DNA of 64,000 nucleotides from an uncultured delta proteobacterium (GCA_963727445.1 CAVSGI010000006.1:608001-672000); one strand, 5' to 3'; positions 599-20,292 are shown, counted from the first letter of the stretch. Numbers and translations: made by a program. Notes: a model not told the origin generated them from the sequence alone.

Positions 599-2374
599 TC
601 AGCTCCGTAGGAGTGGAAGCGCTCGCCCGGTCGGCTCGGGGTCGCCCATGCCGGAGATGATCGCGCGCGTGATGGGGTGGATGAGCACGATGATGCGGTC
701 GAGGGCGCCGAGCGCCTGCGCGCTGGCCGTGGGCTCGCTCTTCTCGTAGGAATAAGCGACGCCGGGCAGGATGCGCAACGCGCGGGTGTCCGGCTCGGCG
801 GGAACGGCGCGGAGGACGACCTCTCCCGTGGTGTGAGAGAGCACGATCCTCAGTCCCTGGCGCGCGTCACCGTCGATGACGGTGACCTCCGCCAACGTGA
901 AGACGCCGAGCGAGTCGACGCGCCGCGCGAGGGCGTCGTGCATGTGCTTGTGTGCGACGCCGGCGTCGGTCGCGGGCGGGTCCGTGGACGAAAAGGAGAT
1001 CGGTTCCTCCCGTATACCCGCCGCGGCGCGATGTGCGTCGCGCTGGCCGGGCCGCGGGAACTTCCAGGTGCCTCCGTGGGGGATGTCCCCGCTCTCGTCG
1101 TGAGCGAAGTCGTCGAGCCACCGGCAGGTGTCCTCGAGCTCCTCTCGAGACCAGCCGCGGCAGGAGATGAGCTGAAGCGTGAAGGGGTCGTAGACCATCG
1201 CGTCGCGGGCCGGTGCGTTCTTCATGAACGCGCTCGGAAGCACCAGACAGTGGAAGACCCGGATCGAGGCGGGGAGCTTCAGGACGCGCTCCAGGGTGCG
1301 CTTGAAGCTGTCGGGGTCATCGCCGGGGAGGCCGAGGATGATCTCGACCGTCGTGTCCGGGACGATCGACGCCACTTCGGCCACGACTCGGTCGAAGCGC
1401 TCCTCGTCGAAGGGCCGGTCGACGTGTTTCAGCACCGACGCGTCATACGATTGGAGGCCGATGCCGGCGTAGGCAGCGCGCGCGGACTCGAGGAAGGCGA
1501 GGTGCCCGTCTTTCATGTGCGAGGGATAGACCTCGCAGCGCAGGCCTCCGAGCTTTGCCAGGGCGCCGACCTCGGCCTCCGCCCGAGACAGGTTGGCGAA
1601 GGCGCGGCTGCTCAGGTTCAGGGCCGGGTCCACCAACCAGGTGCCCTTGACGTCCAACTTGGAGAGCGCCTCGAGCTCGCGCACCAGATGTTGGTGGCCG
1701 AAGACCCGCGACCGTACGCCGGTGTCGCCCCAGGCGCAGTAGGCGCACGACAACGGGCAGCCGCGAAAGGACTCGAACTGCGCCGTGACGCCGTCGGGCA
1801 TCAAGCCGAGTTGGTAGGGCGACGGGTGGACGTCGGGGGGACCATAGTCGCGGAGCGGCGTCTCAATCCACGCGTCACCGTCGTGGACCGCCAGCCCCGG
1901 GATCTTCGCGAGGGCCCCGCGGTCGAGCGCGGGGGAGAGCAGGATCTCCTGAATCGCCGCCTCGCCGTCCCCGATACAGATGGCGTCGACCACCTCTGCT
2001 CCGTCGGCGTGCTGCGGTAGCTCGAACATCTCCGGACGGCTCGAGGGGCCGCCGAAGATGATCGTCCGCTCGGGGCGCGCGCGCTTCGCTCGGCGGCAGG
2101 TTTCGAGGAGCGTGGGGAAGGACCACACGTACGCGCTGGTGCCGATCACGTCCGGGTCGAAGGCCTCGATCCGCTCCAAGAGCGCGTCCACGTCGAGGGT
2201 GCGCATCTCGATGAGCGTGTGCTCGGTGATCTCGCCGAGGATCTCGTGGCCGACGATGGCGGCCTGGATCCGTCGTACCGCGTAGTTGAAGGGTTGGTTG
2301 TCCACGCTCTCGGTGAGCTGCCACGGATCCAGGCAGAGCAGCGCCACACGACGTGGCTTCACGGAGGGGGGCAT
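599..2374 (-). CDS. Cobalamin-binding radical SAM enzyme (copy 1) with C-terminal extra domain
   Basis: CxxxCxxC motif FRGCPLSCAYC; B12-binding-like segment PDVIGTSAYVWS...IIFGGP; ILGLPGDD. Likely start MPPSVK at 2374, just after the upstream stop. Confidence 0.9.
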   Translation of the reverse strand: MPPSVKPRRVALLCLDPWQLTESVDNQPFNYAVRRIQAAIVGHEILGEITEHTLIEMRTLDVDALLERIEAFDPDVIGTSAYVWSFPTLLETCRRAKRARPERTIIFGGPSSRPEMFELPQHADGAEVVDAICIGDGEAAIQEILLSPALDRGALAKIPGLAVHDGDAWIETPLRDYGPPDVHPSPYQLGLMPDGVTAQFESFRGCPLSCAYCAWGDTGVRSRVFGHQHLVRELEALSKLDVKGTWLVDPALNLSSRAFANLSRAEAEVGALAKLGGLRCEVYPSHMKDGHLAFLESARAAYAGIGLQSYDASVLKHVDRPFDEERFDRVVAEVASIVPDTTVEIILGLPGDDPDSFKRTLERVLKLPASIRVFHCLVLPSAFMKNAPARDAMVYDPFTLQLISCRGWSREELEDTCRWLDDFAHDESGDIPHGGTWKFPRPGQRDAHRAAAGIREEPISFSSTDPPATDAGVAHKHMHDALARRVDSLGVFTLAEVTVIDGDARQGLRIVLSHTTGEVVLRAVPAEPDTRALRILPGVAYSYEKSEPTASAQALGALDRIIVLIHPITRAIISGMGDPEPTGRALPLLRS

Positions 2375-2384
2375 CGTCCCCACT

Positions 2385-4751
2385 CTACGATGCGGGTGCG
2401 TCGTCGGCCAACCGCTGGGCCCAGCTCGCGTACCGGTCCCGGACCCGCGCATGGGACGGCTCGACCCGCACGCCGCCGATGACGATGAGCGTGGGCTCGT
2501 CCAGCACCGAGAGGTCCTCGCGGGGATCGCGCGGATAGACGACGAGGTCCGCCGGCGCACCTTCGGTGATCGCGGGCTCGCGGAAGTAGGCGCGCGCGCC
2601 GAAGGAGCCGGCGGCGAGGGCGGCCATACGCGAGAGCCCCAGCTCGTGGAGCTGCCGAATCTCGTCGGCGACGGTCACCTCGGGGAAGAGATCGGTCCCG
2701 GCGAGGATCAGCACGCCGCGCGACTCGGCGTGGGGAAGGAGCTCGGCCAGGCGCACCATCGTCTGCTCGATCCACGTCGCGCGTTCGGGCTGCCGGTCGC
2801 GTCGCGCGATCCGCCACATCGGGTGCGCGATCGCGGTGAGAGGAGCCCATGCCGTGCCGCGCTGCGCCATCTCCGCCAACAGCGCTTCGTCGAGCCCCCA
2901 CCCGTGCTCGAGGCTGTCCACGCCGGCGCGCACGGCGACCTCGGCCCCCGCGTGCGTGAAGCAGTGGGCGGCGACGCGTCCCCCGAGCGAGTGGACCACG
3001 CGCACCGCCTCCGAGAGCAGGGGCAGCGGATAGCTGACCGCGTCGTCGCGGGTGAACCCGGAGTTGATGCGGCCGCGGTAGTCGCTGGTGAAGTCCGCGA
3101 AGACCTTGACCCAGCGCCCGCCGCGCTCGATGCGCTCCGCAGCGGCGCGCACCAGGTCCTCTGGCTCGGTGGCGGTGAAGGGCCACTCGTCGTTGCGCAG
3201 GATCATCGTGCCGCATGCGTGAACGCGCGGCAGGCCGGGCACGTCCAGGAGCTGACTGGGGGCGTCGTCGATCGAGCCCATGTCGCGGATCGCGGTGACG
3301 CCCGTCACCGCGTAGTCGGTGCGCCGCTCGTCGAGCCAGGCCTCTGTGCTCACCGGCGCGTCGCGATCGTGGGGATAGCTGATGTGTCCGTGGCATTCGA
3401 AGAGCCCCGACGTCACGAAGGCCGAGCCCCGGGTCAGGAGCTCCGCATCGGCGGGTCCCGCCGAGTGAATGCATCCGTCCACCACGAAGAGGTCTCGCGT
3501 GCGTCCGTCCGGCAGCGTGGTGCCGTGGACTCTCGCGCCGCGCTCGTCGCTCGACGGCGCGATCCGCGGCGCGTCCGCGGGGTAGACCAGGGGCCACCGC
3601 GTGCTCGCGGCGGGGTCGCCGGGGTGGGCGTCGGGGGCCGAGTTTTCGAGGAGCATCCGCATCTTCGGCGTGGTCGGCGCCTTGATGCGCGCGCCGTCGG
3701 CGAAGCAGTGCAGGGCGAGCGCTGCGCGCGGCGAGTCCCCTTCGTTCGGAAAGGCGCCGTGGATCATCTTGCCGTCGTGGAAGCTCACGTCGCCGGCGAA
3801 GACCGGGGGGAGCGTGTCCACGACGAGGCCGGCCTCCGCGATGATGGTGGCGAACTCGGCCTCGCTCACGTCGTTGATGTCCTCCACGTGGGCGATGCCG
3901 AGTCGCTGGGCCCCGCGAGCGAAGCGGAGCAGGCCGTCTCGTGGCCCGACGTCACCGAGCGGGATCCAGCAGGTGATCGTCGCCTCCGCGTCGAAGGGGA
4001 AGACAGCCTCGTCCTGGTGCCAGGGGGTGATGCCGGCGCCCGCCTCTTTGATGAGCCAGTCCTCGCAGAAGAGGCGAAGCGACGAGACGCCCATCAGCTG
4101 CGCGGCCATCCCGAGGACGCGCCTCGACCACGCGAAGGTGCGGAGCTCCGGATCCGAGAGCCCGAGGTCGACGATCTGGGTGAAGGATCGCGCGTAGGCG
4201 TCGGGGCGCGCGTTGGGCGGCGGGAGGTCTCTCGGCCATGCGCGCTCGAGGGCGAACCACAGATGCGGCGCCGCGGCCAGGACCACGTCGCGGCCCAGCG
4301 CGCGGCGAACCAGCACGTGCCCGTCGCGCCGGTAGGCGTCGATGATCGCAGGGTCGAGGTCGACCTCGCTCGCGAGATGGGCGCGTTGGTAGGGCGTTGG
4401 AAACCCAGCGTCGCGGGGAGGCGGAGCCAGTGTGGAGGCGGATGGATCGAAGCGCTCCGCCGACAGGAGCGCGGCGAGGGCGTCGATCGCGGCGTCGAGG
4501 GCTCTGCGGCGTGGCGGCGAGAGCTCGCCGTCGTAGCGGTAACTGAACGCGAGGGAACGGACTTCGCGGTAGCACCGGCCCCGCCCGGACGCCGGGCGGA
4601 CCTCCAAGACCAAGCTGGGCTCGTGCGCGAAAGCAATCCACACGGCGCCACGCTCCTGCCACATGCGGCTTGTCTCCAGCGTGCGGGCGGTGGCCTCGGC
4701 GACCGCATCCGCCATCCGCGAGCGCAGGTTCGAAGACCGTTCGCTCGACAT
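2385..4751 (-). CDS. Fusion: N-terminal unknown module + PhyH-family Fe(II)/2OG dioxygenase + metal-dependent amidohydrolase
   Basis: PhyH motifs TPWHQD...TCWIPL...GDVSFHDGKMIHGAFPN...R. Amidohydrolase motifs ECHGH, GVTAIRDMG, WVKVF, AAHC, SLEHG, LAGTD, GAPADLVV. Start MSSERS overlaps the upstream stop (TGATG). Confidence 0.85.
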   Translation of the reverse strand: MSSERSSNLRSRMADAVAEATARTLETSRMWQERGAVWIAFAHEPSLVLEVRPASGRGRCYREVRSLAFSYRYDGELSPPRRRALDAAIDALAALLSAERFDPSASTLAPPPRDAGFPTPYQRAHLASEVDLDPAIIDAYRRDGHVLVRRALGRDVVLAAAPHLWFALERAWPRDLPPPNARPDAYARSFTQIVDLGLSDPELRTFAWSRRVLGMAAQLMGVSSLRLFCEDWLIKEAGAGITPWHQDEAVFPFDAEATITCWIPLGDVGPRDGLLRFARGAQRLGIAHVEDINDVSEAEFATIIAEAGLVVDTLPPVFAGDVSFHDGKMIHGAFPNEGDSPRAALALHCFADGARIKAPTTPKMRMLLENSAPDAHPGDPAASTRWPLVYPADAPRIAPSSDERGARVHGTTLPDGRTRDLFVVDGCIHSAGPADAELLTRGSAFVTSGLFECHGHISYPHDRDAPVSTEAWLDERRTDYAVTGVTAIRDMGSIDDAPSQLLDVPGLPRVHACGTMILRNDEWPFTATEPEDLVRAAAERIERGGRWVKVFADFTSDYRGRINSGFTRDDAVSYPLPLLSEAVRVVHSLGGRVAAHCFTHAGAEVAVRAGVDSLEHGWGLDEALLAEMAQRGTAWAPLTAIAHPMWRIARRDRQPERATWIEQTMVRLAELLPHAESRGVLILAGTDLFPEVTVADEIRQLHELGLSRMAALAAGSFGARAYFREPAITEGAPADLVVYPRDPREDLSVLDEPTLIVIGGVRVEPSHARVRDRYASWAQRLADDAPAS

Positions 4752-5516
4752 CAGGACCCCGGCAAGAGCGACGCGAGGACCTCGTCGGCCTCGGCGGCGG
4801 CGCGGAAGGATTCGTCGACCCAGGAGGGCCGTGGCGCCCATGCGGCCGTGAGGTAGAAGGCGATGAAGATCCGGAGCCCCGCGGAGCGCTTTTCCGTCGC
4901 CGCGTGCCAGGTCGCCTGGTCGAGGAGGACGACGGTTCCCGCGGTGCAGAAAAGCTCGCGCTGCCCCGCCCAGTCGGTGGCCTTGGGATCGAAAGGCGGC
5001 TCGGTGGGGTCGGTGAGCGCCCGCGGCCGAATGCGCAGCGCGCCGTCCTCCGGCGATACGTCCTCCAGGTAGAGGAGCGCAGTGATCCGCTCCGGGCGCT
5101 CGTAACGCGGGAAGATCCCCTCCTTGCGATGACGGATGTTGTCGACGCCGCCCATGTGCGCGTGCCAATCGAAGAAGGGGCGTCGCCCCGACACGACGAC
5201 CGCGCTCGCGTATTCGAGGTACATGCCGGCGCCGAGCAACTCCCGCGTGACGCCGAGCACTTCGGGCGCGAAGATGTGTGCGCCGAGCTCGGGGAAGTGC
5301 GATCCCAGCTTGTGAAACACCAGGCCCACCGGCGAGATCTCGACGTCGGTCGCGGGCGCCTTCGGGGGCCGGGCGTAGGTCTCGGGGGACCCGAGGGCCT
5401 CGTAGCGCGCCACGATCGGCGCGCGGATGCGCGCCACCTCGTCCGCGGAGACCGAGATCCTCGAACACCGCGTATCCCTCGTCGAGGAGCGCGCGTGCCC
5501 GGGCCGACTCAGACAC
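4751..5516 (-). CDS. PhyH-family Fe(II)/2OG oxygenase-like protein (one apparent +1 indel near 5452)
   Basis: N-terminus (V)SESARARALLDEGYAVFEDL joins the frame of ORF 4751..5437 if one extra base is removed. Motifs WHAH, ITALLYLEDV...GALRI, GTVVLLDQATWHAA...R. GTG start overlaps the rSAM2 stop. Confidence 0.75.
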
Positions 5517-7143
5517 CGTCGCCTCCGAGGGGCGCCACGACCGGTCCCACGTCCTGGTGGAGCGCGGCGATGAACGAGCGCAGGCGCGACGCGCCTCCAG
5601 CCTCGAGCTCGCCACGGTGCGAGTAGGCGATGCCATCGTGCTCCGCGAAGAGCGCTTGCCCGGGCGTGGCCACGCGGGCTTCGAGCACCACCCCTCCTTC
5701 GCCGGCGTCGAGGTCGAGGATCAAACGCCCGCCGTCGGCGCGCGCGTCTCTGAGGCGGTAGCCCATCTGGGTGGAGGCTACCGCGCGGCGGAGGCGCGCG
5801 AGCGCGAGGTCACCGAGGGAGCGCGAGCGTTCGGCCGCGCCGTCGGTGCGAAAGTCGACCCAGTCGCGCCCGAAGTTCGGGCGGTGCATCTGGCCTGCAA
5901 TCTCGCGGACGTAGGCCCATTCGTTCTCGAGGTCCTCGCGGCTCCATCCGAGGCAGGACTCGATGGCGAAAGTCTCCGGATCGAAGACCAGATCGAACTC
6001 CTCCGCGCGTTCGAGGAGGGCGTCGGGCAGCGCCAGGCAGTAGAAGACGCGCACCGTCGCGGGGATCGAGAGGGCCCGTTCGAAGGTGCGGCGAAACGAG
6101 GCGGGATCGTCGCCGGGGAGGCCGAGGATGAGCTCGAGGTCGATCGGATATCGGCCCGAGAGCTCGTCGAGCACGCGAGCGAAGCGCGCGGCGTCGAAGG
6201 GCCGCCCGAGACCCTTCAGCACCGCTCCGTCGAAGCTCTGGATCCCCACCGCGAGCTCCACCCGGCCAAAGGTGTCGAAGAGATCGAGGTGCTCGTCCTT
6301 CAGGTAGGTGGGGTAGACGTGGCCCAGGACCTGGCGCGTCCCGAGCGCGCGCACCTCGCGCTCGGCAGCGGCGAAGTTGCGGAATGCGCGCGGGCTCAGG
6401 TTGAAGGCCGCGTCGAGCACGTGCACCCGCTCGACGCCCGCCGCGTCGAAGCCGCGCAGGTGCTCGGCGAGGTATTCGGCGGAGTACACGCGGTCGGCAC
6501 GCGCGTCGCCCCATTGGCAGAAAGCGCAGCTGATGGGGCAACCGCGGAAGGTCTCGAGGAAACCGTGCTCGGCCCGCGGGATGGTGCCGAGCTGGTAGGG
6601 CGACGCGTAGTCGTCGAGCGCCGGCCGCGCGGCCTCGCCGCTCGCGCGGAAACCCAGGGCGTGTGGGACGTGGAGTCCGGCGACTCGCTCGCGCCAGTCG
6701 TCGTTCCCGTGCTCTCTGACGATGGCGCGGATGACCTCTTCACCTTCACCGGTGGCGATGGCGTCGAAGAAGCGCGCGTAGGGAGCGTAGGGCGAGAGCG
6801 CCAGCACCGAAGGACGCGCCGCCGGCCCACCCATCACGACGCGGACCTCTGGGTCGTGCTTCTTCACCAGCTCGGCGACGCGACAGAAGAGCCCGATGGA
6901 CCAGATGTAGGCCGAGGCCGCGACGACGCTGGGTCCGAAGGCGCGGATCGCCTCGAAGTACGCCTCGGGGTCGTCCTCGCGGAGGTCGATGGCGCAAGTC
7001 TCCACGTGCCCGAGGTCGGGCGCGCTTCGAACCGAGGCCTCGAGCTTCCGGGCTGCGTAGGAGAAGGGGAGCGAGCCTCCCGACACGTCGCCCCAGACGA
7101 GGTCGCGGGCCAGGAACGCGACGCGGGGCTCTGAGCTCACCAT
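5509..7143 (-). CDS. Cobalamin-binding radical SAM enzyme (copy 2) with C-terminal extra domain
   Basis: FRGCPISCAFC; VVAASAYIWS...VVMGGP; ILGLPGDDPASFRRT. Clear paralogue of 599..2374. Confidence 0.9.
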   Translation of the reverse strand: MVSSEPRVAFLARDLVWGDVSGGSLPFSYAARKLEASVRSAPDLGHVETCAIDLREDDPEAYFEAIRAFGPSVVAASAYIWSIGLFCRVAELVKKHDPEVRVVMGGPAARPSVLALSPYAPYARFFDAIATGEGEEVIRAIVREHGNDDWRERVAGLHVPHALGFRASGEAARPALDDYASPYQLGTIPRAEHGFLETFRGCPISCAFCQWGDARADRVYSAEYLAEHLRGFDAAGVERVHVLDAAFNLSPRAFRNFAAAEREVRALGTRQVLGHVYPTYLKDEHLDLFDTFGRVELAVGIQSFDGAVLKGLGRPFDAARFARVLDELSGRYPIDLELILGLPGDDPASFRRTFERALSIPATVRVFYCLALPDALLERAEEFDLVFDPETFAIESCLGWSREDLENEWAYVREIAGQMHRPNFGRDWVDFRTDGAAERSRSLGDLALARLRRAVASTQMGYRLRDARADGGRLILDLDAGEGGVVLEARVATPGQALFAEHDGIAYSHRGELEAGGASRLRSFIAALHQDVGPVVAPLGGDGV

Positions 7144-7159
7144 CGAAGCATGACCGCGC

Positions 7160-9350
7160 TCAGCCGCCGATGCCACCGCCGAGATCCAGGTCGGGTAGGG
7201 GGAGGGCGTCGGTTTGAAGGCTGGTTTCGTTGTCCTGGTAGTGCATGCTCTCGGCGGTGAGCGACGTGAGGTCGAAGCCGGGCCCCGAGATGCAAGCGCC
7301 GATGGTGTTGTCCTCGATGTACCCGTCGGAGACCGTCAGAGTCGTGTCGCTCTCTCCGCCGCTGTCGAAGACGTAGAATCCCGCAGGTGGCGTTGTTGCC
7401 GCTCAGGAAACGCGAAAAGGTTGCGGCTGCGTCGGCGACGACCACCCCATGGCCCCGCGCCCCGGCGCCCGTTCTCGCGACGTTCGAGACGGTGAAGTCG
7501 TGGGCCTCGAGGGTGGCTTTCGTGACGACCAGCCCGTACTCGCGAAGGTCGTCCATCTGCACCCGCTCGAGCTCCGTTCGCGAGCTCGCCTGCGCCTGAA
7601 CGGCTCGGCCACCGACGCCATCGGGGGTGCCCGTGACGTGACGCACCACCACGTCGCTCAGCGACATCAGCGAGCCGCTGTGTTGTGCCAGCACTCCCAC
7701 GTCCACCAGATCCTCGAGCAGAGCGCGCGACAATCGAAGGGACGAGCCGAAGACGATGTTGGCGGCCCGCCCGCCGAAGCCGCCGGCCCCGGGGTGGTTG
7801 TTTCGAATCACGACGTCCGTGAGGTCGATCTGCGCGTTGTTCTGGCCGTTGATGGCCGTGGCGTAGCCGCCGTCGAAGCGCCCCCGGCTCACGGTGACCG
7901 AGGCGCTGTCGGCGTGAAGGTGGACGCCAATCTTGCCGCCCTCGTTGCTCGTCGCTTCGATGGAGAAGTCGCTCAGCTCCACCCTCGCTCCCGTCAACAA
8001 CACGAGCCCGCCGTCCTGGACGCGGGCGACCGCGACCCGCGATCCGGTGAAGGTGCTCTCCGATTCGACTACGAATCCACGGCCGGTCATGGGCACGGAA
8101 GAGGGAGTGCTGTCGCGCACCACCAGGTCGGTGACGTCCAAAGAGCTGGCATTTACGACCGATACCGAGAAGACGTCGACGCCCGACAGCACCACGCGCT
8201 CCGCCTCGAGCGTGCCGCCGACATCGACCAGGATCCCGTATCCCCTGGGGTTGCCCCTCGGCGCGGCGACGTCGCGGATCACCACGTCCGAGAGGCTCGC
8301 GGATGCCTCGAGGTCGGCGACGCCCGCTTCGGCGCAGCGCTCGACGAGGACTCGCGAGAGCGTGAGTGTCGCCCCCATGTCGACGTTGAACGCCCGCCCT
8401 CCTTCTCCGCTCGCCGGCACCGTGTCCAAGACCGCGGCGTCGCTCATGGACACCGCGACCCCTTCGCCCCGAATGATGACGCCGCCCTTGGTGCTGTTGC
8501 GGATGACGAGGCGCTGCGCGTCGATGGTGCCCCCGAGGAGAAGAAAGGCGAGACCTTGGCCGAGCTGGGGTGTCACGTTTTCGATCAGAACGTCGGCGAC
8601 CTCGAGATGCGCGTCGCCGGCGCTCACGGCGAAGGCCTCTCGTAGCACTCCGTCGACGACGACGCCCTCTACGCGCAGGTGTCCAGTGCCGAGTTGAACA
8701 CCGCGCTGAGGCGCGCCGCGGATCGTCACGTTGCGGAGCACCGCTGGATCACCGTCGGCGGTGACCGTCACCACCTGCGCCACGGGCGCGTCGACACCGG
8801 TGAGTACGGTTCGGGCCGCGCAGGCGCCGACGACCTCGACGCCAGGACGCAGCGGGAGCGAGCCCGCGTAGGTCCCGGGCCCCAGCGCCACCACCGTCCC
8901 CGAGCCGAGAGAGCTCCAGTTGACCTGCGACAGCGATGTGTAGGGCGCGCCCCGGCTCCCGTCGCCATTTGCTGCTGCGCTTTCGAGCACGTAGATGGTT
9001 CCGGAGACTTCGGCGAATTCGCCCGAGGGGCACACGTCGCCCACGGGCCGGCAGCCCGCCTCACCGACGAAGTGCGCTTCACCGTCGGCGCAATCCGCCG
9101 GGCCGCCTTCTGGGTAGGGGTCGCATTCGACGATCCCGTCGACTGTCACCTCGCGCCATCCCGACGGACACGGCGTCAGCACCGGCGCGGCAACCGGCGG
9201 CTCGCCCTCCGCGAGCCACGGGATCTGTGGTGGCGTGACGCGCTCCTCCACCATCGAGGCGTCGCCGCCGGCATCTGCGCTCGAGTCCGGACCGGAGCAC
9301 CCGGCCACGAGGCTGAAGATCACTGCGACGGCGGCGCGCGGAGACACCAC
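7160..9350 (-). CDS. Secreted lipoprotein with Cys-rich N-terminus, DUF1565-like motif and right-handed beta-helix repeats (apparent indel near 7377)
   Basis: Lipobox-like LVAGC; YVLESAAANGDGSRGAPYTSL; repeated V..VVIRD..GRG units. A shifted frame gives the C-terminus ...GACISGPGFDL...LPLPDLDLGGGIGG* ending at 7160, matching the paralogue at 11320. Confidence 0.75.
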
Positions 9351-15789: not shown

Positions 15790-17433
15790 ATGGGACTGCG
15801 CCTCCTGTTTTCGATCGCGGCTGCGGGCCTGCTCGGCGGGTGCGTGGGGCAGATCAGCGATGTCGGGGGGGCGCCGGGCGACGCGCCGGACATCGACCCC
15901 TTCGACCCGCCCGAGGGGTATTGCGACGGCGCCGGACCCGACCTCGCCGACGTCCCGATCCGGCGTCTGAGCCGCGTCGAGTACATGAACACGGTTCGGG
16001 ACGTGCTCTTCGGCGCCAGCTTCGAGATGCCCGAGATCCCCGGCGACATCACCGAGCAGGGCTTCGAGAACGTCTCGCGGCACCTGAGCCCCTCGACGCT
16101 CCTGGTCGAGCGCCACGAGGCCACGGTGACCGCGGCCGCAGAAGCGGCGATGAACGACGCCGCCGTCCGTGATCAGATCCTGCCCTGCGCGGGATGGGAT
16201 ACGCCCGCCGCCCAGAGCGACTGCGCCGAGATCTTCCTCGCGACCTTCGGGCAGCGCGCCTTCCGTCGTCCTCTGGACGCGGACGAGACGGCGTTCATGC
16301 TCGATTTCATCGAGCAGCAGGCGGCGGCCATCGACTTCGAAGCCGCGATCGAGCTCGCGATAGGCGCGCTCCTGATGTCGCCCGAGTTCACCTATCGGGT
16401 CGAGGTCGGCGAGGGCACAGAGGTGACGCCCTTCGAGATGGCGAGCCGGCTCTCGTACTTCCTGTGGCAGACGATGCCCGACGACGAGCTCTTCGCCGCC
16501 GCCGAGCGAGGCGAGCTGACGACGCGCACCGAGATCGAGGCGCAGGCCTTGCGAATGCTCGAAGACCCGCGCGCCGCCGAGGCCTTCACGGACTTCCACC
16601 GGCAGTGGCTCGACTTCGATCGCGTTCTCGACGAGGCGAAGGACGGGGTGCTCTTTTCGAGCTGGAGCCCCGCGCTCCGCGACGCCGTGCGCGAAGAGAG
16701 CGATCGATTCGTCGAGAGCATCTTCGAAGGTGACGCGACCCTGGGCTCGCTCCTGACCAGCCAACGGACGTGGGTGAACGGGCCGCTGGCCGCGCACTAC
16801 GGGCTGCCGCCGGTCTCGGATTGGACCCAGGTCGAGCTGCCGGCCGGCGAACGATTGGGGATCCTCACCCGCGCCGACTTCCTCGCCGGTCACTCTCACT
16901 CGACGAACGCCTCGCCGGTGCTCCGCGGCGTGATGGTCCTCGATCGCGTGCTGTGCATGGCGCCGGGCGCGCCTCCGCCGGGCGCCGCTGCTTCGGCGCC
17001 GGAGGTCCCGCCGGACGCCGTGATGACCAACCGCGAGGTCTTCGCGCTCCGCACCTCGCCCGACGCCTGCCAATCCTGTCACCAGCAGATCAACGGCATC
17101 GGCTTCGGGTTCGAGAGCTACGACGCGATCGGCCAGTTCCGGACTCGAGACAACACGCTGCCCGTCGATGCGAGCGGGGAGCTGATTGGCACCGACGTCG
17201 ACGGACACTTCGCGGACGCGGTCGAGCTCTCGGAGATGCTCGCGGGGAGCGAGACCGTGCGCGACTGCACTGCGACCATGTGGGTCCGCTACGCGACGGG
17301 ACACACGGTGGCGCCGGCCGACGCGTGCCTCCTCGAAGAGGCGCGCACTTCCCTCGAGCAGAGCGGCGGTGACGTTCGACAGATGCTCGTGGACATCGTC
17401 ACGAGCCCGCACTTCACGCGAGGGGTCCGATGA
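15790..17433 (+). CDS. DUF1592/DUF1588/DUF1585/DUF1587/DUF1595 (PSCyt-type) lipoprotein with CxxCH motif
   Basis: RRLSRVEYMNTVRD, RAFRRPL, LMSPEFTYRVE, ASRLSYFLW..MPDDEL, SPVLRG, CQSCH, GFGFESYDAIGQFR. Confidence 0.9.
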   Translation: MGLRLLFSIAAAGLLGGCVGQISDVGGAPGDAPDIDPFDPPEGYCDGAGPDLADVPIRRLSRVEYMNTVRDVLFGASFEMPEIPGDITEQGFENVSRHLSPSTLLVERHEATVTAAAEAAMNDAAVRDQILPCAGWDTPAAQSDCAEIFLATFGQRAFRRPLDADETAFMLDFIEQQAAAIDFEAAIELAIGALLMSPEFTYRVEVGEGTEVTPFEMASRLSYFLWQTMPDDELFAAAERGELTTRTEIEAQALRMLEDPRAAEAFTDFHRQWLDFDRVLDEAKDGVLFSSWSPALRDAVREESDRFVESIFEGDATLGSLLTSQRTWVNGPLAAHYGLPPVSDWTQVELPAGERLGILTRADFLAGHSHSTNASPVLRGVMVLDRVLCMAPGAPPPGAAASAPEVPPDAVMTNREVFALRTSPDACQSCHQQINGIGFGFESYDAIGQFRTRDNTLPVDASGELIGTDVDGHFADAVELSEMLAGSETVRDCTATMWVRYATGHTVAPADACLLEEARTSLEQSGGDVRQMLVDIVTSPHFTRGVR

Positions 17434-18857
17434 GCGCGACGCGACGACGATTCCTTCAAGCGCTCGGGCTCGGTGGCGCGAGCCTCCTGCTTCCCTCCCT
17501 GGGACGGCGCGGCGCGAGCCCCGCCCGCGCGGAAGGCGAGTACCCCACGCGCCTCTTGATCTTCACGACCCAGCACGGCGCACCGCGCCAGCACTGGCAG
17601 ATGGACCTGCCGGGGCTGCCCGCCGCCGCCGATGGATACGTCGACCTCGCGCCTCTCGCCGCCACGGACTTCAGCCACGTCCTCGCGCCGCTCTACGACG
17701 TGCGCGACCGGGTCACGATCGTCCAGGGACTGTCGATGATGTCGTCGATGCTCGACGATCCGGGCAACAACCACGGCGTCTCGTGGGCGCACCTTCTGAC
17801 CAACGCCTACGCCAACTACGACGAGCCTTTTCAGACCAGCGGCGGGATCCACCCCGTCGCGCGCGGCCGCTCCATCGATCAGTACATCGCCGCGCAGGTC
17901 TCGACCGCGGGGATGATCCCGACCCTCGAGTGGGGTGGGGGAGGGCGTTTCGCCAGCGGGCCTGTCGGCTACGCGACGGGGCCGGACGGATCGTGGCTCC
18001 CCTACGAGACCGACCCCGCCCGGGCCTTCGCGCGGCTCTTCCCGATGGGCCCACCCGACCCGGCGATGGCCGCGCCCAGCCGCCGCGACCTGATCCGCGC
18101 GGCGCGCCCGAGCGTGCTCGACGCCGCCGCGGAGCTCTACGACACGACGATCCCCCGCCTCGCCGCCGAGGATCGCACGAAGCTCGAACAGCACCGCGAC
18201 CTGATCCGCGACCTCGAGGCCCGCCTCAGCGGAACCGCGACGGGTGGGGCCGCCTGCGATCCGAGCTACGACGATACGGCGAGCCGCTACGACCAGTTCT
18301 TTCAGCTCCTCTCGGTCGCTTTCTCCTGCGACCTCACGCGCGTCGCGACCATCGACGTACCCCAGCTCTCGACCAGCGACTTCGGCGCGCCTCCGGGTGA
18401 CGTCCACGAGGTGTACGCCCACGGAACCAGCCCCGAGGCGTACATGGCCATGGCGGATTACTACCGCTACCATGCGAACCAGTTCCGTTCGCTCGTCGAG
18501 CACCTCGACGCCATCCCCGAGGGCAGCGGGACGCTGCTCGACAACACGGTGGTGCTCTGGTTCACCGAGCTCGCGACCGGGGGCCACGACATGGCGGACA
18601 CGCTCGCGGTCGTCGCGGGCGGCGGGGGCGGCGCGCTCAGCCCTGGCAGGTACGTGCGCTTCGCGCAGAATCGCCCGAACCCCTGCTCGACCTACGGCTG
18701 TCTCGGCGGCGGCAACATCGGTCCCGGCCACAGCCACCTCTTCGTGAACGCGATGCAGGCGATGGGCCTCAGCGACGACTCCTACGGCATCGCGAGCGCC
18801 TCCGCCCTCGACGGCTCCGCCATCGATCTCTCCGGCCCGCTGCCCTTCGTGAGCTGA
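17430..18857 (+). CDS. DUF1552 domain protein (Tat signal)
   Basis: TRRRFLQALG signal; SIDQYIA, AFSCDLTRVATI, GTLLDNTVVLW. ATGA overlap with the DUF1592 gene. Confidence 0.9.
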   Translation: MSATRRRFLQALGLGGASLLLPSLGRRGASPARAEGEYPTRLLIFTTQHGAPRQHWQMDLPGLPAAADGYVDLAPLAATDFSHVLAPLYDVRDRVTIVQGLSMMSSMLDDPGNNHGVSWAHLLTNAYANYDEPFQTSGGIHPVARGRSIDQYIAAQVSTAGMIPTLEWGGGGRFASGPVGYATGPDGSWLPYETDPARAFARLFPMGPPDPAMAAPSRRDLIRAARPSVLDAAAELYDTTIPRLAAEDRTKLEQHRDLIRDLEARLSGTATGGAACDPSYDDTASRYDQFFQLLSVAFSCDLTRVATIDVPQLSTSDFGAPPGDVHEVYAHGTSPEAYMAMADYYRYHANQFRSLVEHLDAIPEGSGTLLDNTVVLWFTELATGGHDMADTLAVVAGGGGGALSPGRYVRFAQNRPNPCSTYGCLGGGNIGPGHSHLFVNAMQAMGLSDDSYGIASASALDGSAIDLSGPLPFVS

Positions 18858-18861
18858 AGCC

Positions 18862-20292
18862 GTGGAATCGAAAGATCACCGCCTCGCACCGCCGCTCTGG
18901 CTGCTCCTCGCGCTGCCCATGCTCTCGGGGCTCGGATGTGAAGGGATCATGAGCGGCACCACCACCGGGGACGCGTCGGCGATGGAGGACGGAAGCGTCG
19001 CGGGAGACGGCGCGGTCGCTTCGCCTCCCGATGGCTCCGCCACGTCCGACGCGGGCCCAGACGCCGACGCGGCGACCGTCGACGCCGGCCCGACCTGCGA
19101 CCCACCGCCCGGGCCGCCGGCGATCACCGGCGCGACCCACGACGTCCGCCCTGGGGACGACCTCGGCGAGGCGATGGCTGCTGCGGCGAGTGGCGACGAG
19201 ATCGTCGTTCACGCCGGCAGCTATGGCGACGTCGACGTTCGAGACCTCGCATTCGATGGCCTTCTGGTCATCCGGGCCGCCGACGCAGAGAGCGCGGACT
19301 TCGGTTCGCTCTGGTTCGAGCGGGTCCACGGCGTCTACGTCGAGGGGCTCTCGTTTTCGAGCACGGTGACTGTGCAGAGCGGAGAGCGCGTGGTCTTCGA
19401 TGGCGTCTCCATCGACGTGGGCGACATCGGCGGGGCCGCCTTCCACGTGCGCGGGCGGGGCGGAGAGCTCGGGAGCAAGGAGATCACCCTTCGCCGATCC
19501 GTCGTCTCCGGCGGCGCGCGCACCCTCTTCCTCCAATCCCTGTTCACCCCCGCTGACGAGTGGAATCAGGACATCGTCGTCGAGGACAACGACGTGACCT
19601 GCGATGCCTACGGATGCGTTCAGATCTCCGGCTCCCAGCACGTGCGGATCGAAGGCAACGTCTTCCGCGATTCCCAGGGCGACGGCGTGCTCCTCGCGGG
19701 CGCCATCGACGTCGAGGTGCTCCGGAACCGCTTCGTCGGCATCGCGGGCGCGTCGGGGGGCGCCATCCGCGTGGCGAGCCCCGGGCGCGAATGGGACGAC
19801 TTCGACGGCGTGCGCTACATGGTCTCCGAGGACGTCCGCATCGCGAACAACCTCGTCACCGACTACGGAAACGGGATCGAGCTCCTCGCCTGCCGCCGCG
19901 TCGACATCGTCTTCAATACCGTCATCGGCGGCCGCGGCCTGTACACCTGGCGCCGCACGCCTCACGACCGCTCGGGTGCGGAGATCCTCGTCGGCAACGA
20001 CGACTACCGCCTCTGGAACAACGTCCTTCCCGAGATCGCCATCGACGATGGCGACCCACGCCCGACGCTCGAGTCGCACAACGCGGTGCTGCGCGGCGGA
20101 GCGGGGGAGGGCCTCGTCACCGACGATCCAGGCGTCGATTCGGAGGGTGCGCTCGCGGCTGGCAGCCCGTTGCGGGACGCAGCGCTCGCGCACGCCGACA
20201 ATCCCGCCGACGATCTCGACGGCGATCTTCGCGTGGGGACGCCCGACATCGGCGCCATCGAAGATGGCGCGGTGGCCCCCTGTGCGCCGTAG
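18862..20292 (+). CDS. Secreted right-handed beta-helix lipoprotein with C-terminal choice-of-anchor-Q-like motif
   Basis: LGC lipobox; GDEIVVHAGSY; IEGNVF/IANNLV repeats; DDLDGDLR...PDIGAIE. Confidence 0.8.
   Translation: MESKDHRLAPPLWLLLALPMLSGLGCEGIMSGTTTGDASAMEDGSVAGDGAVASPPDGSATSDAGPDADAATVDAGPTCDPPPGPPAITGATHDVRPGDDLGEAMAAAASGDEIVVHAGSYGDVDVRDLAFDGLLVIRAADAESADFGSLWFERVHGVYVEGLSFSSTVTVQSGERVVFDGVSIDVGDIGGAAFHVRGRGGELGSKEITLRRSVVSGGARTLFLQSLFTPADEWNQDIVVEDNDVTCDAYGCVQISGSQHVRIEGNVFRDSQGDGVLLAGAIDVEVLRNRFVGIAGASGGAIRVASPGREWDDFDGVRYMVSEDVRIANNLVTDYGNGIELLACRRVDIVFNTVIGGRGLYTWRRTPHDRSGAEILVGNDDYRLWNNVLPEIAIDDGDPRPTLESHNAVLRGGAGEGLVTDDPGVDSEGALAAGSPLRDAALAHADNPADDLDGDLRVGTPDIGAIEDGAVAPCAP

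Follow-up and report, generated by a model that had tools for sequence, protein, structure and literature searches.

A four-gene operon at the left end of a 64,000-nucleotide stretch from an uncultured delta proteobacterium (GCA_963727445.1 CAVSGI010000006.1:608001-672000, or G000:C6:608001-672000; "the window" is this stretch at its full length) raises the question why one short domain, the "module," is attached to three of its enzymes, twice at the C terminus and once at the N terminus. The answer reached here is that the module represents a real, uncatalogued and shuffled domain family. Both this family and its connection with the HxsA4-type His-Xaa-Ser peptide system are well supported, and a role for it can be proposed. 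The four genes are located on the minus strand with abutting or overlapping ends; they and the module copies are positioned as follows.

599..2374, minus strand: rSAM1, B12-binding and radical S-adenosylmethionine (rSAM) enzyme, 591 amino acids (Pfam PF02310 and PF04055)
650..952, minus strand: module copy 1, C-terminal domain of rSAM1, amino acids 475-575 (hidden Markov model, HMM, and profile-profile comparison)
2385..4751, minus strand: fusion of module, PhyH dioxygenase and amidohydrolase ("PhyH-amidohydrolase"), 788 amino acids (Pfam PF05721 and PF01979)
4452..4733, minus strand: module copy 2, N-terminal domain of PhyH-amidohydrolase, amino acids 7-100 (HMM, profile-profile comparison, AlphaFold2 model)
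about 4751..5516, minus strand: PhyH2, second PhyH-family dioxygenase, without a module (Pfam)
5509..7143, minus strand: rSAM2, B12-binding and radical-SAM enzyme, 544 amino acids (Pfam)
5530..5820, minus strand: module copy 3, C-terminal domain of rSAM2, amino acids 442-538 (HMM, profile-profile comparison, AlphaFold2 model)

A preliminary description had noticed a module of about 60 amino acids on three different enzymes. The three segments it quoted do translate from the minus strand where it placed them, but they comprise only the C-terminal two thirds of a unit of about 95 amino acids, which reaches one helix and one strand further upstream. Pairwise similarity of the three copies is weak, with 23-24% identity and observed scores reached by 28, 3 and 7 of 2000 shuffles. 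A control HMM built solely from 23 C termini of rSAM2 orthologues from other genomes was run against 103,381 open reading frames (ORFs). It found the rSAM1 copy at an E value of 3.2e-5 and the N-terminal copy of PhyH-amidohydrolase at 6.4e-5, and the first clearly unrelated ORF appeared at 0.26. For three families, profiles that were built separately from 30, 57 and 24 sequences aligned end to end with HHalign probabilities of 99.6, 99.1 and 98.7%. These comparisons show that the three copies are homologous at the sequence level; their profiles align with one another, the topologies predicted for them are in agreement, and the module coincides with no annotated domain. The notion of three different enzymes has to be narrowed, because the two rSAM enzymes are paralogous to each other (40% identity across residues 7-416), which leaves the PhyH-amidohydrolase copy as the only independent fusion within the window.

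The AlphaFold2 models of copies 3 and 2 (pLDDT 94.8 and 94.4) predict an independently folding accessory domain composed of a helix, five strands and another helix. Across 12 host families, the most conserved positions are an S-[YH]-R motif (Y 0.81 plus H 0.17) and a preceding [FY]; the [AS]-[FY]...S-[YH]-R motif is located in the last two strands of the predicted fold. Pfam gave no credible match, the best E value being 2.8e-4 in one member of 70, and no family matched more than 3 members. NCBIfam, including the models TIGR03976 and NF038315, had no match for the three window copies at E<=1. A PDB sequence search with the module profile A1 reached an E value of only 0.19 at best, and Foldseek comparison of the models with PDB and BFVD returned nothing at E<=0.001. 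The ESM Atlas contained no usable feature match, and its structure neighbours stayed at TM scores of <=0.63 with no family named for any of them. Among the matches listed by a wide structure search, both models shared the same set of chains; the BPI/TULIP/SMP, Aha1-N and phosphoglucomutase domain 4 folds are likewise of a helix-meander-helix type. PqqD/RRE or frataxin/CyaY chains were not among the 50 matches listed for either model, which does not exclude them.

The comparison of the module with the RRE, the recognition element of peptides that ribosomes make and that are modified after translation (RiPPs), needs to consider mobility and fold separately. The RRE (PqqD family, PF05402) is similar in having about 90 amino acids, an N- or C-terminal position on unrelated RiPP enzymes or a stand-alone existence, and low conservation, and the role proposed for both is the same. 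It is defined by three strands followed by three helices in a winged helix-turn-helix (PMC12710340). The fold predicted for the module differs from this arrangement. PF05402 matched neither the three window copies at E<=10 nor any of 70 aligned copies at E<=0.1, and HHalign gave 1-3% against the PqqD-family protein of the source genome as a single sequence. The suggested likeness to the RRE extends to mobility and to the proposed role but not to the predicted fold or the profile. HxsD and HxsD-like proteins were rejected as relatives as well, with HHalign values of <=0.6% against local alignments of 15 and 7 sequences, respectively.

The mobility is visible in the host range. A module profile found 340 clusters (50% identity) at E<=0.001 among 1.84 billion representatives. 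By host, the best 150 of these 340 clusters were sorted into 52 B12-rSAM enzymes, 12 HxsC-like rSAM enzymes, 11 PhyH types, 5 unnamed cluster families, 34 short or module-only proteins and 36 other long proteins, one of the latter being a false positive. Pfam analysis of 31 of the 36 long hosts yielded three 2-oxoglutarate (2OG)-Fe(II) oxygenases, three nitrogenase component-1-like proteins, two metallo-beta-lactamases, two PhyH proteins, one WelO5-like protein and one radical SAM protein; matches to TP_methylase and PMT_2 remained below the threshold. Further hosts are TPR proteins, multi-pass membrane proteins of glycosyltransferase-like or PMT_2-like kind with signal peptides apparent by eye and hydropathy, and tandem arrays of 4-8 module copies without a recognised catalytic domain. 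This position at either terminus of unrelated folds, in arrays or nearly alone, together with close enzyme homologues that lack the module, agrees with the mobile accessory domain initially proposed. The module was carried by 115 of 401 genomes in a sample of the order, about a quarter, and by 82 of 391 genomes in a sample of the phylum; one carrier, on a 7.5-kb contig, was labelled Terriglobales. In a tree of 271 copies, the host labels switched 45 times compared to at least 167 times in 200 shuffles. The copies cluster by host enzyme, which points to old fusions followed by vertical descent. One clade, with 56 of the 60 PhyH-amidohydrolase copies, was nested among C-terminal copies of the rSAM1 type, at a modest support of 0.87 on a short alignment.

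The genomes that carry the module usually carry HxsA4 or HxsB as well. In the 401-genome sample, with the unpublished G122 counted as one genome, HxsA4 or HxsB occurred in 107 of 115 module-positive and 37 of 286 module-negative genomes, counts uncontrolled for kinship and genome size; the module was present in 115, HxsB in 137 and HxsA4 in 130 genomes. For family f17 alone, the co-occurrence was 47 of 49. The HxsA4-type system (NF038313, HxsA4; TIGR03978, HxsB; NF038332, HxsC4; TIGR03976, HxsD; NF038315, HxsD-like) does not only share genomes with the module but repeatedly clusters with it, and its genes recur in the neighbourhoods of rSAM2 orthologues, although its catalogued core proteins are devoid of the module. 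Named relatives of rSAM2 belonged to the Myxococcota at 22 of 23 loci (Polyangiaceae, Sandaracinaceae, Enhygromyxa, Paraliomyxa, Chondromyces), which suggests that the window comes from a myxobacterium. One contiguous stretch of about 21 kb in G102 contains HxsD, HxsD-like, HxsA4 and HxsC4 plus orthologues of all four window genes. In G044, four module-bearing genes follow hxsA4-hxsB-hxsD, and the rSAM2 orthologue is 9 kb away from hxsA4. Such a linkage of an orthologue to a precursor was found in G102, G044 and G142, which are 3 of the 21 other genomes in which a close orthologue of rSAM2 occurs, and at the loci L090 and L100. At L090 from Paraliomyxa miuraensis, the PhyH-amidohydrolase type is fused to an HxsC-like enzyme: a protein of 1157 amino acids, composed of HxsC-like rSAM, module and PhyH-amidohydrolase, is encoded 4 kb away from an HxsA4 gene that contains 20 repeats. 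Together with an orthologue of rSAM2 and a double B12-rSAM enzyme of 1114 amino acids with one module, this fusion is located 4-15 kb from HxsA4 (fusion and double enzyme at L090:6538-10011 and 16901-20245). The neighbours of these module-bearing genes are HxsA4, a cupin/JmjC-like gene and two WelO5-like genes. The HxsA4 cluster of G102 also holds genes for UbiA, a polyprenyl synthetase and a desaturase (L034:4364-6917).

The source genome itself contains HxsA4 precursors and HxsB, at C20:767-770 kb and hence on another contig than the operon. With scores of 91.7 and 85.8 bits, the two HxsA4 genes exceeded their cut-off of 55, and HxsB reached 550 bits against a cut-off of 370; the HxsA4 peptides comprise about 97-120 amino acids with 13-16 repeats.

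G000:C20:767046-769952 (L086:11987-14952): tandem pair of HxsA4 genes, which have 16 and 13 His-Xaa-Ser repeats and end in Trp, followed by HxsD, HxsD-like and HxsB

Just upstream of the HxsA4 genes are near-identical direct and inverted repeats of ~55 bases (L086:11140-11520; C20 about 766.1-766.5 kb), and HxsC-like radical-SAM genes are scattered across C20:764-830 kb. Additional module copies are present at C20:822, 829 and 841 kb and on C12.

The canonical HXS of E. coli and Klebsiella is described as a four-gene antiphage system, HxsD-B-C-A, with radical-SAM maturation of a His-Xaa-Ser repeat protein (PMC13128918), a feature shared with the system considered here. The antiphage role is described for the canonical HXS and not for the HxsA4 peptides. 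The available text of that paper does not mention myxobacteria, the RRE, HxsA4 or cobalamin, and the accessible portion of another paper mentions HxsB/HxsC merely in passing (PMC9062424). Nitrogenase-like genes with many radical-SAM neighbours were reported from Elusimicrobia and Myxococcales, and tetrapyrrole chemistry was proposed for them (bioRxiv 10.1101/765248). The literature outside subscription journals and supplements yielded nothing on HxsA4/HxsC4 or this system in myxobacteria.

The host range, the co-occurrence, the linkage to HxsA4 and HxsB genes and the fusion to the HxsC-like enzyme can be combined into a reading with a probability of roughly 45%: the module may be a tether, not of the RRE kind, that belongs to an expanded pathway for His-Xaa-Ser peptides. 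It would attach each of the many unrelated enzymes that carry it to one shared substrate, most likely the His-Gly-Ser repeat peptide HxsA4, and would do the job of the RRE with a different fold. The module would bind this peptide, with the [AS]-[FY]...S-[YH]-R motif as the putative binding site. Tandem arrays and exported copies suggest that binding of the repeat core may fit better than binding of a cleavable leader. The four-gene operon would be a detached tailoring block that acts on the HxsA4 encoded on contig C20 and provides two B12-dependent methylases, two 2OG-type oxygenases and one hydrolase. Most radical-SAM enzymes that bind B12 act as methylases, and most PhyH proteins as 2OG oxygenases; judged by its family, rSAM1 may be a methyltransferase. 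Both rSAM1 and rSAM2 scored below every NCBIfam cut-off, and none of the operon genes in the window received a curated Hxs name from NCBIfam. An even wider, doubtful version would make the module a second, non-RRE class of mobile peptide recognition that binds (His-Gly-Ser)n and recruits dispersed enzymes onto one myxobacterial peptide on both sides of the membrane, namely methylases, oxygenases, nitrogenase-like reductases, possible prenyltransferases and periplasmic glycosyltransferases. In that case, every enzyme of the unexplained HxsA4 pathway would bear this mark, whatever the place of its gene in the genome.

Several observations weigh against tethering to HxsA4, in addition to the uncontrolled co-occurrence counts. 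No precursor is encoded in or near the window operon, the HxsA4 genes being on C20 and the operon on C6. Only the 3 of 21 other genomes named above have hxsA4 or hxsB within ~30 kb of the close rSAM2 orthologue, and in most genomes with such an orthologue the operon-type and hxs genes are on different contigs. The module was absent from 46 of 46 HxsB/HxsD/HxsD-like ORFs and 4 of 4 true HxsC4 ORFs and present on only 2 of 65 PhyH2-type ORFs, all numbers including redundant loci. The module identity of 16-28% between host families is low for one shared ligand. Finally, 8 of the 115 module-positive genomes contain neither HxsA4 nor HxsB, among them the single-contig genomes G372 and G400 with 99-100% completeness. 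In these two genomes, a module-bearing B12-rSAM gene is located ~3.5 kb from a small Frankia_peptide-family gene, which may be chance.

L068:5688-5864 and L070:5233-5412: small gene, matched by Frankia_peptide (PF14407) at L068, with a near-identical counterpart at L070

Alternatively, the module could be a protein-protein docking unit, the copies of which bind each other or a shared scaffold such as HxsD or the tandem-array proteins, gather the enzymes in a complex and leave the substrate untouched, which is rather unlikely. It is improbable that the module is just a structural or stabilising appendage without a common ligand, spread by gene fusion and fission in compact clusters. The nesting of the PhyH-amidohydrolase clade in rSAM1-type copies would be expected from capture of the tail of an upstream gene, the module in front of this enzyme is of a different, HxsC-like type in the L090 fusion, homologues without the module exist, and conservation within the family is lower for the module (35%) than for the protein as a whole (a mean column identity of 53%). 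A mere appendage would nevertheless have to account for the retention of the module in 57 of 59 PhyH-amidohydrolase homologues (45 at >=15 bits with the HMM of an unrelated family, 12 weaker), from a family with 60 matches at E<=1e-30 including PhyH-amidohydrolase itself, for the S-[YH]-R motif conserved in 12 host families and for the copies in exported proteins and tandem arrays. Equally improbable is binding of a small molecule, a lipid/isoprenoid or a tetrapyrrole, as the shared substrate with an indirect link to HxsA4.

The remaining observations concern individual genes. PhyH2 agrees with its homologues in one frame over the first ~20 residues and in another frame from there on, with the switch at window positions 5450-5460, possibly due to an assembly indel. 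The beta-helix gene upstream of the operon (7137-9350) also has an apparent frameshift, near its 3' end (window about 7190-7410), and a family-like C terminus was found in a different frame. On C20:822234-828768, two membrane proteins with an apparent signal peptide and an N-terminal module (the second copy being weak) are encoded ahead of GT2, nucleotidyltransferase and epimerase genes, a possible glycosylation block. Another module-bearing family has 340 amino acids.

G000:C20:841449-842471 (L074:8054-9076): module-bearing protein of 340 amino acids with G-W-D...K-L-Y motifs

Its top PDB match, 8ye0 (LynF/TruF/PatF peptide prenyltransferase), was non-significant at an E value of 0.22, no TIGR04445 candidate was found in the source genome, and a named homologue was not obtained, so that a LynF/TruF-type prenyltransferase is only a lead.

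Independent of the mechanism, the module is an uncatalogued family through which the HxsA4 system, the chemistry of which is unstudied, becomes connected with proteins of the B12 radical-SAM, PhyH and nitrogenase-like types, and Paraliomyxa miuraensis SMH-27-4 is a named strain with the pieces together in one cluster. Genome mining for RiPPs depends on the RRE and on gene clustering, and the module is likely a new route to the role of the RRE. If HxsA4 tethering is correct, scattered tailoring genes could be assigned to their substrate by means of a mobile domain that labels the enzymes serving a single peptide pathway, the operon without a nearby precursor being an example. The module would then also serve as a targeting handle for enzyme engineering.

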